Below the pieces are notes generated by a model, which was given only the letters and a program-made list of their open reading frames with translations, had not been told where the DNA came from and ran no database searches. The position numbers and the translations under genes are program-made. A stretch of DNA of 64,000 bases, taken from assembly GCA_035274845.1 (NCBI GenBank), contig DATENU010000012.1:44908-108907 (forward strand). The letters run 5' to 3'. Shown piece after piece: positions 21,748 through 30,751 of this stretch (positions are counted from its first letter, which is position 1; each line of letters starts with the position of its first letter). The DNA is from Chthoniobacterales bacterium (GTDB taxonomy: Bacteria; Verrucomicrobiota; Verrucomicrobiia; Chthoniobacterales; UBA10450).

Positions 21748-23937
21748 ATGAAAGTCCAAACCAAGATCACGCTTCTGCTTCTCGTCGTGGTCGCCACTTT
21801 CATGGCCGGCCTCGGGGCTTTCCGGCTTTACGATCGGCAAAAGTTTGCCCGGATCACCAAGGAGCGGGAAATCGAGCGCAAGCAGTCGTTCGAAGCATTT
21901 CTGAAAAAGGACGGTGAGCCGCTCAAAACGCTGGCGGATTACGACACCACCTGGGACCAGATGGTGCAGGCGATCCAGAAAAAGGACGCCGCCTGGTTCG
22001 AGGACAACGTCAACAAGGAAACTCTGCTCGGCTACAAAGCGAACGCGGTCTGGATATACGATCGCGACGGAAGCCTGGTCTACTCAAAAAACAGCACCGG
22101 CGAAACGCCTGGTCTTCTTCCCCTCCCCCCGGGTGGATTAGGTCAACTTTTCGCCAACGACCCGACGGCCCACTTCTTCGTCACGATCGGTTCCGACCTG
22201 TTGGAAATCCGCGGCGCCACTGTCCATGGCTCGATGGACTTCAACCGCCAGACTCCGCGACAGGGGTTTTTCTTTGTCGGCCGTTTGTGGAACGCGGCCG
22301 CCGTGGATGAGATGGCGATCTTTTCGAGCAACCAAATCCGGCTGGTTATGCCACCGAGCGAGCGCGAGATCCTGCCCCAGGACCGCGAACACGCCGGGGT
22401 GGTGACGTTTTCCCAAATGCTGACGGGCTGGGATGGAACGCCGCTCGCGCAATTGGTGGTTCGAAATGAATCCCCGGTTGTTCGCGAACTGACTCGTTCC
22501 AGCGAGCGGCTTCTTCTCTGGTTTTGCATCTTCGCCGTGGTCGTTCTCCTCCTGATTTCCTGTTCGCTCGTGCGTTGGGTTAGCCACCCTCTTCGCCAAA
22601 TTATGGCGAGCCTGAGACGGAACGATCCGAAGCCGATCGAGGGCATGTGCAAGGATGACTCGGAGTTCGGAGAAATGGCGCGGACCACGAAGCAATTCTT
22701 CGAACAGCGCGACAACCTCATCCGCGAGATGGAAGAGCGGCGCGTGACCGAGGAGGCGCTGCGCAAAAGCGAAGAGGAACTCCGGCATTCGCAAAAAATG
22801 GAAGCGGTCGGCCGGCTCGCGGGCGGGGTCGCGCATGACTTCAACAACCTTCTCACCGCCATCATCGGTTATGCGGAATTGATCGCCACTCGCACGAGCA
22901 GCAATTCACTCGCGAAACAGAACGCCGAGCTGATTCGCAAAGCGGGCGAGCAGGCGGCCGCGCTCACCCGCCAGCTCCTGGCCTTTAGCCGCAAACAAAT
23001 TCTCCAGCCGAAGGTCATCGACCTCAACACCCTGGTCGTGGAGATGGAGCGCTTGTTGCGGCGCGTTATTGGCGAACGTTTCGATTTGCAATCCCATCCC
23101 GACGCCGACGTCGGCCGGGTCAAAGCGGATCCGAGCCAGATCGAACAGGTCGTGCTGAATCTCGGAGTCAACGCGCGCGACGCCATGCCTCGGGGCGGTA
23201 AGCTCATCATTCGGACGGACAACGTCACCCTCGATTACAAGGCCGCCCGGCACCTCTCCGTCACTCCGGGCGATTACGTGATGCTCTCGGTCACCGATAC
23301 CGGCGCGGGAATGGATGAAGAAACCAAGTCCCACATCTTCGAGCCGTTCTTTACCACGAAAGGGCCGGGCAAAGGGACCGGCCTCGGCCTCGCCACGGTT
23401 TATGGGATCGTCCGGCAAACCGGCGGCGGAATCTCCGTGGAAAGTGAGCCCGGCAAGGGAAGCACTTTCCGGATTTACCTGCCGCAGGTTTCAGCACCGA
23501 TCGATTACACTCGAAGCCACTCCGCGCCCGTGGACAAATCGGATAATTTTGAGACGGTGCTCGTGGTCGAGGATGAGGACATTGTGCGCGAGCTGGTCTG
23601 CGAAGTTCTCGAAGACCAGGGTTACAATGTCATTTGCGCGGCCGATGGCCTCGAGGCCTTGAAGATGGCGGAGGAGTTCGACGGCACCATTCATCTTCTG
23701 GTCACCGATGTCATCATGCCGCATATGAACGGCCACGAATTGGCCGAAAAACTTTCCAGCCTCCGTCCCGAGATCAAGATCCTCTACGTCTCCGGCTACT
23801 CCGATAACGACATTGGCGACCACGGAATTCTCGATCCGCGGTTCGAGCTGCTTCAGAAACCGTTCACGCCCCAGACCCTGGCCCGGAAGATTCGCGACGT
23901 GATCCTCGAGGGCAAGTATGCCTGCGCCGAGAAATGA
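21748..23937 (+). CDS. Hybrid sensor histidine kinase / response regulator
   Basis: 729-aa ORF; N-terminal TM plus periplasmic sensor, second TM, HisKA H-box ([12 protein letters not shown]), HATPase_c (GTGLGLATV), C-terminal REC domain (LVVEDED...D...K). Confidence 0.88.
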
Positions 23938-24478
23938 GTTGGCGCAGCGCGGACTCCTCCAAATCCGACTCCCGCGCCTGATTACCACGCGTCGGATCGC
24001 TGGGGGGTTGTTAGCGGCCACCACGTTGATCTGCTCTGATTGCAAGCGACCGGCCTCCCAAGCGCGGAGGGAACACGCGGAGGAAAAGCCGGCCGCATCG
24101 GCGCTCGCTTCCTCGCCGAAAGCGGAACCAGAAAAGAAAGCGGTTGAGCGCGAAGTTCACGCCGTGTGGTACGATGTGCCGGCTGAGTCGCTGGCCAAAC
24201 GGCGCGCCGGCAACGGTGAATTGACCGCCGCTCATAATCACCTTCCGCTGGGAACGCTTGTCCGCGTGACGCATGTGGCGAACGGCAAGAGCGTGATTGT
24301 GCGCATCACGGACCGTGGCATCACCAGTCGACACGCCACCATTGATCTCTGCAAGGAAGCCGCAGAAAAGCTCGATATCCTTCGCGAAGGATCGGCGCTC
24401 GTCCGCCTCGAAGTATTGCCCGACGACAAAGGCGCTGCTGCGAAGACCGATTCACCCGCTCCCGCGCTGCCGCCCTAA
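23918..24478 (+). CDS. rlpA: RlpA-like (septal ring lytic transglycosylase, double-psi beta-barrel) lipoprotein
   Basis: 186-aa ORF; AVWYD...TAAHNHLPLGTLVRVTHVANGKSVIVRITDRG matches the RlpA DPBB core. Start uncertain (overlaps the HK 3' end). Confidence 0.7.
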   Translation: MPAPRNELAQRGLLQIRLPRLITTRRIAGGLLAATTLICSDCKRPASQARREHAEEKPAASALASSPKAEPEKKAVEREVHAVWYDVPAESLAKRRAGNGELTAAHNHLPLGTLVRVTHVANGKSVIVRITDRGITSRHATIDLCKEAAEKLDILREGSALVRLEVLPDDKGAAAKTDSPAPALPP

Positions 24479-24480
24479 CT

Positions 24481-25455
24481 TTAGGGCATGCCCGGGGGAG
24501 TAGGTGGTGGCAACATTTCGTTTGGCGGCTGGGTGGACGCATCCGCCGGGGCGGCAACGCCGACCGCAGCCCAGACATCGTAGGGATCGCCAAATTGCCG
24601 GAAGAACAACAGCTTGAACGCAGCCATCCAGACGAGCGCGGGCAAAAGCAGCACCGTGTTGATGTAAGGCAGGCCGCCGATGCAGCAGGTCACGCATGTC
24701 ACGATCGTCCCAATGACCGCCACCCCGACCGCCAGCACAATGCCAAACAGGATAAACAGAACAAACGGTCCCGGATTACCAAGAATCAGTTTGGCGACGT
24801 CGAGGAACGCCTCCTTCGCCCGGCAGCGCCGCCGATACATGACCGGGACCATAAACGCCGAGACCACTCCAAAGAACAAGGCGAAGGCCATCCAGATCAG
24901 GCCGATCACAACTATTCCAATGACGACAAACACTGTTCCGGGATCGGAGTCGCCATGAAACTTAAAGAAACAAAGCCACAGGAACAGCGCCGCGATTGCG
25001 ACGATCAGGAGCGCGCCGCACGCAATCAGGAGCGAGAATAGGAAAAAGCTGTTGCCTTCGCGGCGATATTCCCGCCAGGGGTCGGCGATGGCCGCGCGGT
25101 TTTTCACGATGCAATCCGTGAAGATGAATTTGCCCCGCGCCGAAACCCACATCCAGACCACCGCAAAAACGAGAGCAACAAGAACGATCCCGACGACGAT
25201 GCCAATGATCCACGGGGTTGCGTCCCAAGGAAGATTGCCGTGTGACTCGGAGCGATATTTCCAGTCACCCTTTCCCAAGTTGCCGAGCTGGCCGCCGGGA
25301 TTAAATCCGCCGCCGACCGCGCCACTCAAAAAAGCAGCGAAGGCGATGACGAACCATCTCCCTGCATCGAACGGACGAAAAAGCATCGTCTTCATCCATT
25401 CGGAGGCCGCCCCAAACGGCGCGAAAATTTCGATCTTCGGTTTCTCCCCGTTCAT
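24481..25455 (-). CDS. Hypothetical polytopic membrane protein
   Basis: 324-aa ORF with at least 7 hydrophobic helices and a Pro-rich C-terminus; no confident family. Confidence 0.45.
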   Translation of the reverse strand: MNGEKPKIEIFAPFGAASEWMKTMLFRPFDAGRWFVIAFAAFLSGAVGGGFNPGGQLGNLGKGDWKYRSESHGNLPWDATPWIIGIVVGIVLVALVFAVVWMWVSARGKFIFTDCIVKNRAAIADPWREYRREGNSFFLFSLLIACGALLIVAIAALFLWLCFFKFHGDSDPGTVFVVIGIVVIGLIWMAFALFFGVVSAFMVPVMYRRRCRAKEAFLDVAKLILGNPGPFVLFILFGIVLAVGVAVIGTIVTCVTCCIGGLPYINTVLLLPALVWMAAFKLLFFRQFGDPYDVWAAVGVAAPADASTQPPNEMLPPPTPPGMP

Positions 25456-25589
25456 GCCGGAATTTCACTCCTTTGCTGCGACAGTTTCAAGCTTCGTATC
25501 CCGGAATTCTAGCGCCCCGCGGATCGGAAGCTCGCCGCAAGATGGCTTGTCTTCGGAAGCGCCTTCCTTCGGCTGAACTTCGCGATAGA

Positions 25590-25898
25590 ATGAAATCGAT
25601 GGCGAACCGCAAACAAACCAGGCCCAAAACACCGGACGTCTGTCCAGTCTGCGGCGAAGATGTTCCCCGGGGCGCACTGGCCTGCCCTGAATGCGGCGCC
25701 GATCACAATTCGGGCTGGCGCGAAGATGCCGCCGATTATGACGGCCTCGATTTGCCGGACGAGAATTTCGATTACGACGATTTCCTCCGGCGTGAATTTC
25801 CTTCTGAAGTCAGACCGCCGGGAATCAAGCCGATTTGGTGGATCACCGCGATCGTGCTTCTCGCGCTTGGCATCGCGTTCTATTTTTTCAGGCACTGA
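25590..25898 (+). CDS. Zinc-ribbon protein with C-terminal TM helix (hypothetical)
   Basis: ORF 25473-25898; CPVCG...CPECG zinc ribbon and a C-terminal hydrophobic anchor; start choice uncertain. Confidence 0.45.
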   Translation: MKSMANRKQTRPKTPDVCPVCGEDVPRGALACPECGADHNSGWREDAADYDGLDLPDENFDYDDFLRREFPSEVRPPGIKPIWWITAIVLLALGIAFYFFRH

Positions 25899-25903
25899 AA
25901 CGA

Positions 25904-26230
25904 ATGCGTCTCCGCCACGTCTACCTCGCGCTCTGTCTCCCCGGGCTTGTCCTGCCCTACTGGAAACTCGTTCCCTGGATCATCGATCACGGCCTGAACC
26001 TGACGTTGCTTTGCCAGGAATTGTTCGCGACCCGCATCGGCGCGTTCTTTGGGCTCGACGTCGTCGTTTCCGCAATCGTCCTTTTCGTTTTTGTCGCGAC
26101 CGAAGGCCGGCGCCTCGCGATGCCGCGCCTCTGGCTTCCCATCCTCGCCACCCTTCTGGTCGGCGTTTCGCTCGGCCTGCCACTCTTCCTTTATCTTCGC
26201 CAGCGCCGCCTCGACGCCGGCCCTCTGTAG
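25904..26230 (+). CDS. Small membrane protein (DUF2834-like)
   Basis: ORF 25835-26230 with internal M at 25904 (MRLRHVYLALCLPGLVLPYW...); 3 hydrophobic helices. Confidence 0.45.
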   Translation: MRLRHVYLALCLPGLVLPYWKLVPWIIDHGLNLTLLCQELFATRIGAFFGLDVVVSAIVLFVFVATEGRRLAMPRLWLPILATLLVGVSLGLPLFLYLRQRRLDAGPL

Positions 26231-26312
26231 CGGCGGTCTCAGACCGTCGACATCGAGACATCGCCCGCGCTCTCGTTGACTTGATTCGGATTGATTTTAC
26301 GTTGCGGAACCG

Positions 26313-28121
26313 GTGCCGCGCCGGTTTGAAACCGTGAAAAGCGTCCTTTTCGTTTGTACTGGAAATATCTGCCGAAGCCCGATGGCGGAGGGCCTTTTTC
26401 GCCGTCTGCTCGGCAATCGCAAGGACATCGAAATCGCGTCCGCCGGTGTGCACGCAGTCCGGGGGCAACCGCCGAGTTTGCATGCCATTCACGTCTGCGA
26501 GCAGGAAGGGGTCGACATCCGCGGATTGCGAAGCCAGCCGCTTACCGCCGCGATGGTCGACCGCGCCACCCACATCTTCGCGATGACGGGCGCCCATCTC
26601 GACACGATCCACACCTACTTTCCCCAGGCGATCGACAAAACGTTTCTCCTTCGCGAATTCGAGGAACCCTGCGTGTCGCTCGATGTGCCGGACCCGATCG
26701 GGTGCAGCCGGGACGTTTACAACCACTGCGCCGGCACAATCAAAAACGCTTTACCGACCGTGCTCGCGTTCGTAGAACAAAGCGAACTCGCAGTCCCTGC
26801 GAAATCGCGCGGCGGCGGAACCTCATCTTTCACCATGGCAGATCCCGACATCTCATCCGGCTCCGGAAAAACATCCACTTCGACCGGAGGCCCGTTGAGC
26901 AAGGTCGATCCCGAAATTTTCGCCGCCGTCCAGGCCGAAGAGAATCGGCAACGCGAAAATATCGAGCTGATCGCGTCCGAAAATTTCACCAGCCGCGCCG
27001 TGATGGAAGCGCAGGGCAGCGTTCTCACCAACAAATACGCGGAAGGTTACCCGAAGAAGCGCTGGTATGGCGGTTGTGAAAATGTCGATACCGTCGAGCA
27101 GCTCGCGATCGACCGCGCGAAGCAGCTCTTCGGTTGCGAGCACGTCAACGTCCAGCCGCACTCCGGCGCCCAGGCGAACATGGCCGTTTACTTCTCGATG
27201 CTGAAGCCCGGCGACAAAATTCTTGCGATGAATCTCGCCCATGGCGGCCATCTCACCCACGGCCATCCCGCGAATTTCTCCGGCAAATTCTACGAAGTCT
27301 CGCAATACGGTGTCAGCGCCGAGACCGAGCAGATCGATTACGACGCGTTGCAAAAACAGGCCGAGGAGTTTCGTCCCGCCATGATCACGGCCGGCGCCTC
27401 AGCCTACCCGCGCATCATCGATTTCCCGCGGATGCGCCAGATCGCCGATTCCGTCGGCGCGCTTTTGTTCATCGACATGGCGCACATCTCCGGCCTCGTC
27501 GCCGGCGGCCAGCATCCCAGCCCGATCCCGCACGCCCAGTTCGTCACCACCACCACGCACAAAAGCCTGCGCGGCCCGCGCGGCGGCATCACGATGTGTA
27601 CCGCCGAACACGCGAAAGCGATTGACGGCACTGTCTTCCCCGGCATTCAGGGCGGCCCGCTCATGCACGTCATCGCGGCGAAAGCCGTCTGCTTCCACGA
27701 AGCCCTCCAGCCCGGCTTCCGCGATTACCAGCGCCAGGTCGTGGTCAACGCCAAAGCCCTCGCCGCTGGATTAACCAAACACGGTTACCGGATCACCTCC
27801 GGCGGCACCGACAACCACCTCATGCTGGTCGATCTGCGCCCGAAAGATTTGAACGGCAAAGTCGCCCAGGAAGTCCTCGACCGCGCCGGTATCACCGTGA
27901 ACAAGAACGGCATCCCCTTTGACACCTACCCCATCTTCAAACCCGGCGGCATCCGCATCGGCACACCCGCCGTCACCACGCGCGGCATGAAAGAAGAAGA
28001 TATGCTGGAAATCGCCGACCTCATCAACGACGCCCTCCAAGCCCGCGACGACCAACCCGCACTCGACCAAATCCGCGGAAAGGTGCGCGAACTGACGCGA
28101 AGATTTCCGCTACCGAGCTAA
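26313..28121 (+). CDS. glyA: Single ORF joining an LMW phosphotyrosine/arginine phosphatase domain (aa 1 to about 155) and serine hydroxymethyltransferase (aa about 185 to 602) through a G/S/T-rich linker
   Basis: [16 protein letters not shown] (CX5R P-loop) at the N-terminus. SHMT core [10 protein letters not shown]...[10 protein letters not shown] (PLP-lysine) follows. No stop between domains, same frame; internal ATG at 26835. Confidence 0.8.
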
Positions 28122-28133
28122 GCCGCGACTGCA

Positions 28134-28337
28134 ATGAAAACGAAAACGGTCGGTAAGCGTATGGCGAAAACCCCTGAGGAGTTTCACTCGCTCGGCGCGC
28201 AGCTTGATCTCGAAGCAAGAGCCTTGGATCCGAATCGCCCAACTGGTTTCATCGTAAAATTCCGCACTTGGGAGGATCACGAGCGCTGGGAGAAAGATCG
28301 GTTGGTCGAACAGGCACGCCGAGTCCGCGCCGGATGA
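28134..28337 (+). CDS. Small hypothetical protein (67 aa), first gene of a two-gene cassette
   Basis: Starts 12 bp after the serine hydroxymethyltransferase ORF stop; its TGA overlaps the ATG of the next gene (ATGA). Confidence 0.4.
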   Translation: MKTKTVGKRMAKTPEEFHSLGAQLDLEARALDPNRPTGFIVKFRTWEDHERWEKDRLVEQARRVRAG

Positions 28338-28792
28338 ACGAACAGGCGCCTTTAGTCCGGGTCTGTTCGCTATTAAACAAGCACGACGCGAGATACCTCG
28401 TGGTCGGAGCACGCGCGTGCTGGTTGCACGGCTATGTCAGAGCAACGTTGGACGTAGACATCCTCGTTCCTGAGGATTTGCAGAATCACAAGCGCATCAT
28501 CGCCGCGCTTTCAGAATTAAGGGACGGCTTCGCTGCCGAGCTGAGCCCTCAGGATTTCGTTGAGAACGTCGTGGTAAAAATCGCCGACGAAGTTGAAGTC
28601 GATATCAGCACGCGCGCTTGGAAAGTCACGTTCGATGAAGCGGAGAAATCCGGGCTCAATCGGACAATTGAGGGAGTGCGCGTTCCGTATGTTGATTTAC
28701 AGACCCTGATCAAGAGCAAAACTACTCACCGCGAACAGGACAAGGTGGATGTCGAGCGTTTGCGCGAGATTCAACGAGACAGCGATCGGTGA
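28334..28792 (+). CDS. Minimal nucleotidyltransferase-fold protein (pol-beta superfamily-like, hG[GA]...DxD)
   Basis: 152 aa from ATG 28334; LVVGARACWLHGYVRATLDVDILV resembles the NTase active-site strand-turn; translationally coupled to the upstream small ORF. Confidence 0.5.
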   Translation: MNEQAPLVRVCSLLNKHDARYLVVGARACWLHGYVRATLDVDILVPEDLQNHKRIIAALSELRDGFAAELSPQDFVENVVVKIADEVEVDISTRAWKVTFDEAEKSGLNRTIEGVRVPYVDLQTLIKSKTTHREQDKVDVERLREIQRDSDR

Positions 28793-28847
28793 CTTTCAGA
28801 TCGCCCTCGGCGGGCAATGACTGCGAGATGATATGGCCCATTCCCAC

Positions 28848-29031
28848 CGAAACTTGATGGCATCCGAATCGGCCGACCCGCCGTCACGACGCGCGACATG
28901 AAAGAAGAAGAAATGCTCGAAATCGCCGACCTCATCAACGACGCCCTCACCCACCGCGACGACCAACGCGCCCTCGACCAAATCCGCGCCAAAGTCCGCG
29001 AACTCACGCCGCGGTTTCCGCTTCCGTCGTA
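28848..29031 (+). pseudogene. Diverged duplicate of the 3' end (last ~56 codons) of the serine hydroxymethyltransferase ORF (att-like remnant)
   Basis: 28861-29031 aligns with 27960-28121 with several mismatches (e.g. gaaatcgccgacctcatcaacgacgccctc identical); encodes ...[44 protein letters not shown]. Confidence 0.8.
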
Positions 29032-29207
29032 AGTTGTTTACCGGCCCCCGCTCGCTTCACCGCTCCCGCATCCTTTCCGTACCCACCTAAGCCTCTTTGC
29101 CCTTGTCGCGCGCAAACGCTTTTGATAAACAAAACTGTGTTTTCCCTTTTGCGCGCATCAGCCGCTCCCCAGAATTGAGTTAAGACCGCTCCAGTAACAC
29201 GATACCA

Positions 29208-29951
29208 ATGCGGCGAATCTCGCTTATCCTTCTCTTACTTTTAGCCGTCCTGCTTGGACTATTCGTCGCACTCAGATGGTTCCCTGACACAGTTCGCAAT
29301 GCGGCTCCGACGTTCAGTCTTTTGACCAATGTATTCGCATTCAGCTCTGTGGTCTTCGCGATCGCACTGTTGTCGTGGATTATGCGAACATTAGTGGAAT
29401 CCGACCCGGATCCGTTCCTCCTTAATCTCACCTTTTTCGCTTTTGCCGGCCAATCTATCAGAACTATCGAGTTCATTTACAATGGTCATACCAACGGTTT
29501 TCTCCTCTTTCTTGGGTTGATCGCCGTCGGGATCGTAGGGTGTCAGGCACTCATCCTAAGAGCACATATGCACACAACCAAGACGCACTATAAAGCGCTC
29601 CTTGCAGAGTACAAGAAAACCAGTTGCTCTGATCATGAGATCGAGCATTGGGCAAGCGTTGTATTACAAATCACGGGAACGGATTTTTCGCCTGGCAATT
29701 ATTTCGGCTTTAAGGGGCTCGAGAAAGTCTTCCCGTCGGGCCCCAGAGCGAAGAGCAGAATGGACGCATTATCAATCCTACCTGAAACAGATTTTCGAAA
29801 GGCTGGCCCAAGTGGGAGTGGTTTGACCGCTGAATTACTGGTTGTTCCCGCTGAAGACCGAGTAACACTTTGGTGTCTCTATCGTCGGGCATGCGCAGCA
29901 GCATGGATCGTTTTCATGATCGCCATACTGATCTCACAAAAGAAATCGTAA
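29208..29951 (+). CDS. Hypothetical membrane protein in a lower-GC islet
   Basis: 247-aa ORF with several hydrophobic helices; local composition is markedly AT-richer than flanks; stop overlaps the next start (TAATG). Confidence 0.5.
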   Translation: MRRISLILLLLLAVLLGLFVALRWFPDTVRNAAPTFSLLTNVFAFSSVVFAIALLSWIMRTLVESDPDPFLLNLTFFAFAGQSIRTIEFIYNGHTNGFLLFLGLIAVGIVGCQALILRAHMHTTKTHYKALLAEYKKTSCSDHEIEHWASVVLQITGTDFSPGNYFGFKGLEKVFPSGPRAKSRMDALSILPETDFRKAGPSGSGLTAELLVVPAEDRVTLWCLYRRACAAAWIVFMIAILISQKKS

Positions 29952-30751
29952 TGCTACGCCATAACAGAAGCGTTTACGGTCACAGACCAGAGGGCTTTTC
30001 CTCCCTGTTTACCCCTTCCGACAGTGTCGACACGGCCTCTAGCGAAAGGCGAATCTCACCGAAAGGGAATATTGGCCCAATCATAAAGTTGCGTCATGTG
30101 AGGGTATGGCTAGTTCAATCAATAAGCATCACGAGAATAGTAGCTACGCTTCTATTTGCCGGACTGGCCTTTAAGAACATTTCGCATGTGTTGTTGTCAT
30201 TGCTTTTTGGGACCGCGGTAGTTACTGATCTAATTGACGGGTATCTGGCACGAAAACTCCAAGTCCAGACGCAGTTGGGTCAGGTGATAGATTTAGTAGC
30301 CGATAAATCGTTGACGACTGTTTCTCTGCTATATGCGGCCGCCTGTGGAGTCGATATTCTCCCGATCGCCATAATCGCGATGCGCGATATCATCATGATC
30401 GGCATGCGACTGGTCATAGTCCAAGGTACTCAACTTCTTCCCACCAATCGATTGTTTGGCGGAGCCATGGCACTTCTCCTTTGGGCCAATACCCTGGTTC
30501 TGATATGTGCGCCGATAGAAGGCGGTTTCTTGCAGATCGCAAGCGGAGTATACTGGGCGTGCGCGATAATTTTCGCATGGAACCTTCTGTCGCGCCTTTA
30601 CGTTAGCGTTCCGGCGATAAGGACAGCCTCCAACCTCAATTTGTTATCAGAGATAAGCGCAAAACGCGGTCGCCCGAAGCGGTTTTCTACCTCTGAATTA
30701 TCAATTTCAAAGTTTCGACGTCATTTGGGTCAGGCTGGTGACACCAGGTGA
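29951..30751 (+). CDS. CDP-alcohol phosphatidyltransferase family protein
   Basis: DLIDGYLARKLQVQTQLGQVIDLVADK matches D-x2-DG-x2-AR...G-x3-D-x3-D; multiple TM helices. Start could alternatively be GTG 30098. Confidence 0.65.
   Translation: MLRHNRSVYGHRPEGFSSLFTPSDSVDTASSERRISPKGNIGPIIKLRHVRVWLVQSISITRIVATLLFAGLAFKNISHVLLSLLFGTAVVTDLIDGYLARKLQVQTQLGQVIDLVADKSLTTVSLLYAAACGVDILPIAIIAMRDIIMIGMRLVIVQGTQLLPTNRLFGGAMALLLWANTLVLICAPIEGGFLQIASGVYWACAIIFAWNLLSRLYVSVPAIRTASNLNLLSEISAKRGRPKRFSTSELSISKFRRHLGQAGDTR

Follow-up and report, generated by a model that had tools for sequence, protein, structure and literature searches.

In a 64,000-nucleotide (nt) stretch of DNA from a Chthoniobacterales bacterium (assembly GCA_035274845.1, contig DATENU010000012.1; hereafter the window), we identified a gene, ptp-glyA, that encodes a protein tyrosine phosphatase of low molecular weight (LMW-PTP, or PTP) and a serine hydroxymethyltransferase (SHMT, or GlyA) as one polypeptide. 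Comparison with related genomes indicates that this fusion is real, conserved and selected. Taking the evidence as a whole, we consider it likely that ptp-glyA is a conserved bifunctional gene in which an old gene cluster became fused, that RpiB, the ribose 5-phosphate isomerase of this cluster, was lost, and that an internal start is still probably used.

A phosphatase and SHMT share a single reading frame

Open reading frame (ORF), Pfam and NCBIfam profile searches were run on the window. A single ORF on the + strand, 26313..28121, contains no stop and comprises 602 amino acids (aa) when counted from the first possible GTG. ORF residues 11-148 match LMWPc (PF01451) with 106.5 bits against a cut-off of 23.2 (E=1.8e-30), covering positions 1-141 of the 144 in the profile. 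Residues 195-571 match the SHMT family (PF00464) over the entire profile (positions 1-399 of 399; E=2.6e-167, 556.9 bits), and the C-terminal part scores 636.8 bits against a cut-off of 335 with the NCBIfam serine hydroxymethyltransferase model NF000586. In length and sequence, the SHMT part is typical of bacterial SHMT. An earlier annotation of this DNA, made from the sequence alone (the sequence-only reading), had described a complete LMW-PTP followed by a full-length SHMT in one stop-free frame, and the ORF listing, Pfam and NCBIfam all agree with it; the sequence likewise shows the claimed G/S/T-rich spacer and, at 26835, the in-frame ATG.

The start of the gene, which the same reading had placed at 26313, has to be revised. 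GTG AAA occurs at the position of 26334 in 22/22 orthologues, several orthologues (L001, L012, L014 and L019) carry an in-frame stop immediately 5' of this GTG, and residue 17, a Met in the window encoded by ATG 26382, is Ile in 13 of the 22. The orthologue alignment therefore identifies GTG 26334 as the start and rules out starts at 26313 or ATG 26382. With the gene starting at 26334, the product is 595 aa long and the catalytic P-loop of the phosphatase is translated.

Both domains are conserved and under selection

We searched 5.8 billion proteins, grouped in 90%-identity clusters, and considered the best 120 clusters. All of these combine LMWPc with SHMT, at 83-100% identity, and they derive from JGI, ENA, NCBI and Logan assemblies. 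Their sources are Chthoniobacterales or Verrucomicrobiota metagenome-assembled genomes (MAGs), and their entries are named only SHMT or glycine hydroxymethyltransferase.

In addition, a scan of species-representative genomes yielded 80 loci, which were classified by tblastn and stop-to-stop ORF checks. Direct PTP-SHMT fusions (P-S) were found at 25 loci, nearly all from GTDB species-representative genomes, in Ca. Udaeobacter, Chthoniobacterales, 'Spartobacteria' and Terrimicrobiaceae. PTP-RpiB-SHMT triple fusions (P-R-S) account for 20 loci, and a PTP gene followed by a fused RpiB-SHMT gene (P/R-S) for 12, from Verrucomicrobiales, Victivallales, Lentisphaerae and others. Three adjacent separate genes occur at three loci (L057, L071 and L076; Omnitrophota, Thermoleophilia and Opitutales), while PTP is followed by RpiB, with no SHMT found in the locus, at four (L061, L064, L069 and L072). 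The remaining class, PTP with neither partner in the locus, comprises 17 loci, mostly from outside the Planctomycetes-Verrucomicrobia-Chlamydiae (PVC) group, of which L021, L041 and L058 end at a contig edge. Since FVCTGNIC was one of the scan patterns used to collect the 80 loci, the invariance of CTGNIC across them is partly by construction; its invariance among the protein hits, and the synonymous pattern described below, are independent of that pattern. Pfam matches to representatives of 50%-identity clusters independently confirmed, from fragments, the LMWPc-RpiB, LMWPc-RpiB-SHMT and LMWPc-SHMT architectures. A search of these representatives with the PTP domain returned no full-length fusions, probably because these cluster under plain SHMT representatives.

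The ratio of nonsynonymous to synonymous substitution rates (dN/dS), estimated by the Nei-Gojobori method from a codon alignment of the window and 21 orthologues and to be read qualitatively, was far lower in the two domains (PTP 0.088, SHMT 0.063) than in the linker (0.46), which indicates that both domains are under strong purifying selection. Cys8, Arg14, Asp120 and the THK motif are invariant, and the 12 codons over the P-loop show much synonymous change and zero amino-acid change among the 22 orthologues. Because the catalytic residues are kept and purifying selection is strong, both the phosphatase and the SHMT domain are expected to work.

As an alternative to fusion, the sequence-only reading had raised the case of two genes with a lost stop, and it had proposed a search of related genomes for the same arrangement. 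The fusion is present at 25 loci and in the best 120 clusters, and the uninterrupted frame recurs in >100 independent assemblies, from different projects and assemblers; these comparative data refute a sequencing or assembly artefact. A wider version of this alternative would also allow the phosphatase to be a dying remnant on glyA, and could appeal to the many database calls that start at ATG 26382 and lack the P-loop (579-587 aa entries), as well as to one relative, L054, with a gutted PTP domain. We find it scarcely credible: the PTP dN/dS is low, the P-loop and the acid Asp are invariant with synonymous variation only, and the Ile found at residue 17 in most orthologues marks the ATG-26382 calls as gene-caller errors.

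These miscalled starts, which remove the catalytic Cys, are systematic, since the codon is Ile in so many orthologues, and they affect most public gene calls (e.g. P0001, P0010 and P0028). Because the entries start at the wrong ATG and are all named 'serine hydroxymethyltransferase', the phosphatase is invisible to annotation-based surveys. In L054 (MAG AV96, QHMQ01000048.1, 97-1659), an in-frame deletion of approximately residues 56-133 has taken the acid loop with its Asp out of the PTP domain but has left SHMT and the junction Met untouched; this locus represents either a phosphatase-inactivated lineage or an assembly artefact.

Table 1. Features of ptp-glyA and its upstream DNA, in window positions (PLP, pyridoxal 5'-phosphate)
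Feature	Position	Strand	Basis
ptp-glyA (fused gene of 595 codons and a stop, starting with GTG)	26334..28121	+	
LMW-PTP domain (PF01451)	26343..26756	+	Pfam
P-loop CTGNICRS (Cys8 nucleophile, Arg14)	26355-26378	+	C-X5-R-(S/T) motif
General-acid Asp120 in DPIG motif (VPDPIG)	26691-26693	+	DP motif in all aligned loci
Linker, residues 151-187	26784..26894	+	Junction homology, dN/dS
In-frame ATG of Met168, conserved; probable internal start of a 428-aa SHMT	26835..26837	+	Comparative signals
SHMT (GlyA) domain, full length	26895..28118	+	Pfam, NCBIfam
PLP-binding Lys410 in THK motif	27561-27563	+	THK invariant in 28 homologues
Probable promoter: -35 TTGACT (26276-26281), 16-nt spacer, -10-like TACGTT (26298-26303)	26276..26303	+	Conservation
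Short 5' leader with GC-rich palindrome CCGGTGCCGCGCCGG	26310..26333	+	Read from sequence
Candidate internal promoter-like hexamers TTTACC (26750-26755), 17 nt, TAGAAC (26773-26778)	26750..26778	+	Rare codons TTA, GTA

The linker probably retains the junctions of a lost RpiB domain

The same components occur in the same order as adjacent separate genes in other genomes (L057, L071 and L076), and the full series of architectures was found, from three separate genes through P/R-S and P-R-S to P-S. In the PVC superphylum as a whole, ptp-rpiB-glyA is the ancestral order. The sequence-only reading had invoked the Bacillus subtilis phosphatase gene ywlE lying just upstream of glyA. The old ptp/glyA neighbourhood is indeed reflected here, as it is in Staphylococcus aureus, where ptpB directly adjoins glyA, but 'just upstream' skips rpiB: the order in B. 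subtilis is ywlE-ywlF(rpiB)-ywlG-glyA, and rpiB proves central to how the fusion came about.

This history can be traced in the junction sequences. At four loci (L036, L043, L048 and L052), the PTP stop overlaps the ATG of rpiB-glyA as ATGA. Unfused verrucomicrobial rpiB-glyA genes begin with Met, followed by an S/T-rich leader and then the RpiB core, and in most triple fusions the PTP-RpiB junction still has a Met, with an S/T/P-rich segment again coming after it. On the other side of RpiB, the connector to SHMT in triple fusions reads G-x-x-L-x-x-(V/T)-DPEIF, and a GGxLxxVDPEIF tail precedes SHMT in both P-R-S and P-S forms. The linker of ptp-glyA is composed of the PTP C-terminal tail, Met168, an S/T/G-rich former leader and the tail of the former RpiB-to-SHMT connector, and in this respect the gene appears to match a triple fusion with the RpiB core deleted in frame. 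Since RpiB would have been lost from a triple fusion, the spacer is best seen as a relic of the start codon and leader of the downstream gene and no designed linker. Where the sequence-only reading had described a covalent fusion with a linker-like spacer, the covalent fusion stands as real and conserved, and the account of the spacer is refined.

In a neighbour-joining (NJ) tree of SHMT domains, built without bootstrap, the Udaeobacter-type fusions form one clade. L023 with L031, and L027, represent separate two-domain lineages nested among the triple fusions, which makes more than one loss of RpiB probable. P/R-S forms are nested among P-R-S forms in the same tree, which argues that the PTP/RpiB boundary opened and closed repeatedly. 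No rpiB was found elsewhere in the 64-kb window.

We propose that the present gene arose in three steps. Within the ancestral PVC cluster ptp-rpiB-glyA, rpiB and glyA would have fused first; ptp would then have joined them, probably through a one-base change at the ATGA stop/start overlap, to give ptp-rpiB-glyA as a triple fusion; and in this lineage the RpiB core would have been deleted in frame, leaving PTP joined to SHMT via the old junction.

A verrucomicrobial-type PTP-RpiB-SHMT locus, L035 (CAZCZP010000001.1), is labelled 'uncultured Bifidobacteriaceae' and groups with Verrucomicrobiales in the SHMT tree. It is probably a mis-binned or mislabelled MAG.

A probable former start codon is preserved within the fusion

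Of the 22 orthologues, 20 have ATG as the codon of Met168; one has TTG, and the last has CTG, followed by an ATG three codons on. The median linker column, in comparison, is conserved in just 9/22 sequences. Met168 is invariant in 28 closer homologues, and the other P-S lineages (L023, L027 and L031) have kept a Met 13-20 residues ahead of the SHMT core. In addition, GC content at third codon positions (GC3) reaches its minimum for the gene in the 10-codon segment that has Met168 at its centre (0.452 compared to a mean of 0.687, standard deviation 0.078), and local folding is predicted to be at its weakest at ATG 26835 and immediately beyond it. In triple fusions, the lowest GC3 segment lies at the PTP-RpiB junction (0.562 compared to 0.779, standard deviation 0.059), with the true N-terminal start being the second-lowest.

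An unbiased scan for rare codons placed 7 of its 15 top enriched columns in residues 139-165. Leu140 is encoded by TTA in 13/22 orthologues, compared to 4.4% of Leu codons gene-wide, and Val147 by GTA in 16/22, compared to 6% of Val codons gene-wide; both residues lie inside the conserved PTP C-terminus, and in rare-codon enrichment both columns rank within the top four of the gene. These signals suggest that a region for translation initiation has been preserved around Met168, perhaps together with an internal promoter. Because ATG 26835 is kept and is accompanied by the lowest GC3, the least structure and rare codons, we infer two products, a minor PTP-SHMT and SHMT alone. Initiation at ATG 26835, raised in the sequence-only reading as part of an alternative to the fusion, is thus probably also real, and synthesis of separate SHMT would coexist with the fusion.

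The candidate internal promoter, TTTACC-17-TAGAAC, is a weak match to the sigma-70 consensus that was not flagged by the promoter scan, and we regard it as speculative. A 41-nt identity between the window and L001, considered as a sign of an internal promoter, reflects only close relatedness and was discarded.

A simpler account would have only the 65-kDa PTP-SHMT made, with Met168 and its AT-rich surroundings being an unselected relic or a feature of a flexible linker. With no stop in the frame, full-length translation is certain once the GTG initiates, and three observations both support this account and weigh against a working internal start: no Shine-Dalgarno (SD)-like motif stands ahead of ATG 26835, as is also the case for GTG 26334; a codon-entropy scan detected no synonymous constraint at the PTP C-terminus, the linker or the junction; and S/T/P-rich linkers are intrinsically G-poor, naturally low in GC3 and structure, and could alone lower both near the ATG. 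We nevertheless hold the one-product account to be somewhat unlikely. The linker is nearly free to vary, as its dN/dS and median column conservation show, and yet the ATG is retained in all but two orthologues; the sole clean substitution of this ATG is TTG, which is also a start codon; the other P-S lineages, three in number, have kept a Met as well, as have most triple fusions; and the rare TTA, GTA and ATA codons upstream lie in the conserved PTP C-terminus, beyond the reach of linker composition. Further considerations weigh against our overall reading of a fused gene that lost RpiB and retained its internal start. The RpiB-deletion scenario draws on junction similarity and an unbootstrapped NJ tree, the dN/dS values are qualitative only because dS is saturated (about 1.5) between most orthologues, and the phosphatase may be dispensable in some lineages, given L054.

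Proposed expression of two products

TTGACTTG and TAnnTT are the only blocks at least 80% conserved in the upstream DNA of 21 orthologous loci, and from this conservation a promoter at 26276..26303 appears probable. The arrangement in L001-L022 is TTGACTTG, the TAnnTT block, a short leader with an inverted repeat and an invariant GTG AAA. The inverted repeat is GC-rich and occupies the matching place in the leader of the orthologues, with a sequence that differs between species. No SD-like motif was found in the leader ahead of GTG 26334. A scan for sigma-70 promoter and terminator consensus in and around the gene gave nothing above shuffled expectation and did not flag the conserved upstream block, and Rfam at gathering thresholds detected no riboswitch or other known RNA in the whole window.

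In the mechanism that we propose, transcription would begin from the conserved promoter-like block (TTGACT 26276 / TACGTT 26298). Ribosomes initiating at the non-SD GTG 26334, behind the small GC hairpin, would make the 65-kDa PTP-SHMT chain, which must result from GTG initiation because the sequence has no stop, and ribosomes initiating at ATG 26835 would make SHMT alone (~46 kDa). The internal start would thereby uncouple the amounts of the two activities, giving much SHMT, an abundant enzyme, and little phosphatase. Bacterial SHMT is a dimer, so long and short chains could form mixed dimers in which one phosphatase is tethered to SHMT. The data show directly the ORF, its domains with their conservation and selection, the evolutionary series, and the conservation of the ATG with the composition signals around it. 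Use of the internal start, the product ratio, the mixed dimers and the substrate class of the phosphatase are all points that we infer. An AlphaFold2 model of the whole fusion, built with a 28-sequence alignment (83-93% identical), had a mean predicted local distance difference test score (pLDDT) of 44 and a predicted template modelling score (pTM) of 0.31, and was unusable for domain contacts.

The phosphatase is predicted to be of the phosphotyrosine type

The best PDB matches of the PTP domain are YwlE proteins (4PIC, 4.7e-25; 4ETI; 1ZGG; 4KK3). Position 5 of the P-loop is Ile in the window and in all orthologues, and Thr in YwlE, 4PIC and 4EGS. The Thr at this position of YwlE is needed for phosphoarginine (pArg) specificity, Ile is found in most phosphotyrosine (pTyr)-specific LMW-PTPs, and a Thr-to-Ile change shifts activity towards pTyr (PMC7772506). 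Because position 5 is Ile, the phosphatase is predicted to be pTyr-type, and this residue gives no support to the arginine phosphatase suggested by the sequence-only reading.

It could still be argued that the N-terminal domain, carried along with glyA as in Bacillus and Staphylococcus, belongs to the protein arginine phosphatases of the YwlE type. Its closest solved structures are those of YwlE arginine phosphatases, its synteny is that of S. aureus ptpB-glyA, and its D-P-I-G acid loop is nearer to the D-P-F-G of YwlE than to DPYY, the acid loop of classical LMW-PTPs. All orthologues, however, have Ile at the position where Thr is the pArg determinant (PMC7772506), and no arginine kinase of the McsB type came to light in the 64 kb, where no search aimed at one was made. 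We judge this assignment to be quite improbable. An ArsC-type (thioredoxin-coupled) arsenate reductase was also considered and rejected, with scores of 39-44 bits against equivalog cut-offs of 157-215.

Several relatives of the PTP domain deserve mention in their own right. PDB entry 4EGS bears the name 'Ribose 5-phosphate isomerase RpiB'. The entire chain aligns to the LMW-PTP domain, including the P-loop, and the name looks like annotation carry-over from a ptp-rpiB neighbourhood or fusion. Among proteins of the representative library, P0126 (1679 aa) has a long N-terminal region and six stretches that match the LMW-PTP query, i.e. tandem LMW-PTP-like domains, several of them with altered P-loops such as CSFNTSRS and CTHNTSRS. 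Two close PTP relatives in the same library are fusions of other kinds: P0141 joins LMWPc to a SpoU methylase, and P0187 joins LMWPc to RpiB and has the P-loop CTGNTCRS, with the Thr typical of arginine phosphatases.

A possible functional link between phosphatase and SHMT

Fusion may have been selected for proximity, with the two domains functionally coupled: PTP could dephosphorylate SHMT (and RpiB in triple fusions), or bind or hydrolyse PLP or a small phosphate ester for cofactor loading. Both the ptp-rpiB-glyA neighbourhood and its fusions are found repeatedly, in PVC phyla and outside them, and the PTP-SHMT link outlasted at least two or three separate RpiB losses in the unbootstrapped NJ tree. 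Tight binding of PLP to an LMW-PTP was reportedly described by Zhou and Van Etten in 1999. Coupling is also favoured by findings in Porphyromonas gingivalis: GlyA is an in vitro substrate of its bacterial tyrosine kinase (BY-kinase) Ptk1, and para-aminobenzoic acid (pABA), a folate precursor, inhibits its LMW-PTP Ltp1 (bioRxiv 10.1101/2025.03.11.642667). We nonetheless think coupling of this kind unlikely. The stop between ptp and rpiB-glyA comes and goes in the tree, which suggests near-equivalence of the fused and unfused states; L054 has kept SHMT without most of the PTP domain; an internal start would leave most SHMT chains phosphatase-free; and fusion of adjacent genes at an ATGA overlap is a one-base accident that can be near-neutral.

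RpiB and SHMT supply ribose-5-P, glycine and one-carbon units for purines, and this shared role as suppliers of purine precursors explains their co-expression. As a doubtful extension, tethering of PTP, both covalently and in mixed dimers, might be a regulatory device that controls SHMT, and RpiB where triple fusions are concerned, via dephosphorylation or via the handling of PLP or folate ligands. If true, phosphorylation-based control of one-carbon and nucleotide-precursor supply would be shared across PVC bacteria, and the old ywlE-rpiB-glyA synteny would be explained.

Gene neighbourhood

Upstream of ptp-glyA (23918-26230) lie genes for an RlpA-like DPBB protein, a DUF7544 membrane protein (- strand), a zinc-ribbon protein and a DUF2834 protein, and downstream (29208-30751) genes for an uncharacterised membrane protein and a CDP-alcohol phosphatidyltransferase. 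The flanking genes are unrelated to one-carbon metabolism and, because the gene context differs in L001, ptp-glyA stands alone, outside a conserved operon.

The 3'-terminal 184 nt of glyA (27939-28122), its stop among them, are repeated 911 nt downstream with 83% identity (28850-29033), where the copy again ends in a stop. Between the two copies, an insert (28123-28849) contains ORFs of 67 aa (28134-28337) and 152 aa (28334-28792), neither with a Pfam hit, and this two-ORF cassette is also found directly 3' of glyA in L003 and L013, at 45-73% aa identity. It looks like a small cassette that inserted or recombined into the 3' end of glyA, leaving a displaced gene end; no integrase was seen.

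Relation to known systems

The fusion hard-wires the link between a phosphatase and SHMT in one polypeptide, in an abundant uncultured soil lineage. The series of separate genes, ATGA overlap, triple fusion and RpiB-less fusion amounts to a clean natural experiment on how genes fuse and domains are lost. Should the internal start be in use, a fused gene would have kept an old cistron boundary working, solving the problem of stoichiometry between a regulator of low abundance and an enzyme of high abundance. YwlE-like LMW phosphatases lie beside rpiB and glyA in very distant bacteria.

The closest described protein is Minf_1669 of Methylacidiphilum infernorum V4, reported in one sentence as an LMW phosphatase joined to RpiB and SHMT (Hou et al. 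2008, Biol Direct 3:26; PMC2474590). It has the phylum and the phosphatase and SHMT families in common with ptp-glyA, its domain order is that of the 20 triple-fusion loci, and its junction likewise consists of a Met followed by an S/T-rich segment. Unlike Minf_1669, the ptp-glyA protein is wholly without RpiB and is thus a two-domain derivative; ptp-glyA is the RpiB-less variant of the verrucomicrobial triple fusion noted in 2008. That paper remarks on domain composition only, with no analysis of distribution, origin or an internal start (PMC2474590), and our literature search for the two-domain form, Udaeobacter, RpiB/LMW-PTP fusions and GlyA as a pArg substrate returned nothing beyond it. 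New here are two proposals drawn from comparative evidence, on how the linker originated and on an internal start that is probably still active.

Compared to canonical GlyA/SHMT (PF00464, NF000586), with which it shares the full-length match and the THK motif, the fusion adds 187 residues of N-terminal phosphatase and linker. YwlE of B. subtilis and PtpB of S. aureus have the C-X5-R-S signature, the Asp-Pro acid loop and the glyA neighbourhood in common with it; they are, in contrast, encoded by separate genes, are about 35-40% identical, and have the P-loop CTGNTCRS where the fusion has CTGNICRS. Finally, with its two proposed products ptp-glyA resembles the in-frame nested genes of Escherichia coli that use internal initiation, namely infB with its IF2 isoforms, clpB, and cheA with its long and short forms, in each of which one ORF with an in-frame internal start yields products that share their C-terminal part. 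It differs from these in that its internal start is predicted from comparative signals, and in that this start would have originated as a former gene boundary rather than by evolution within a gene.

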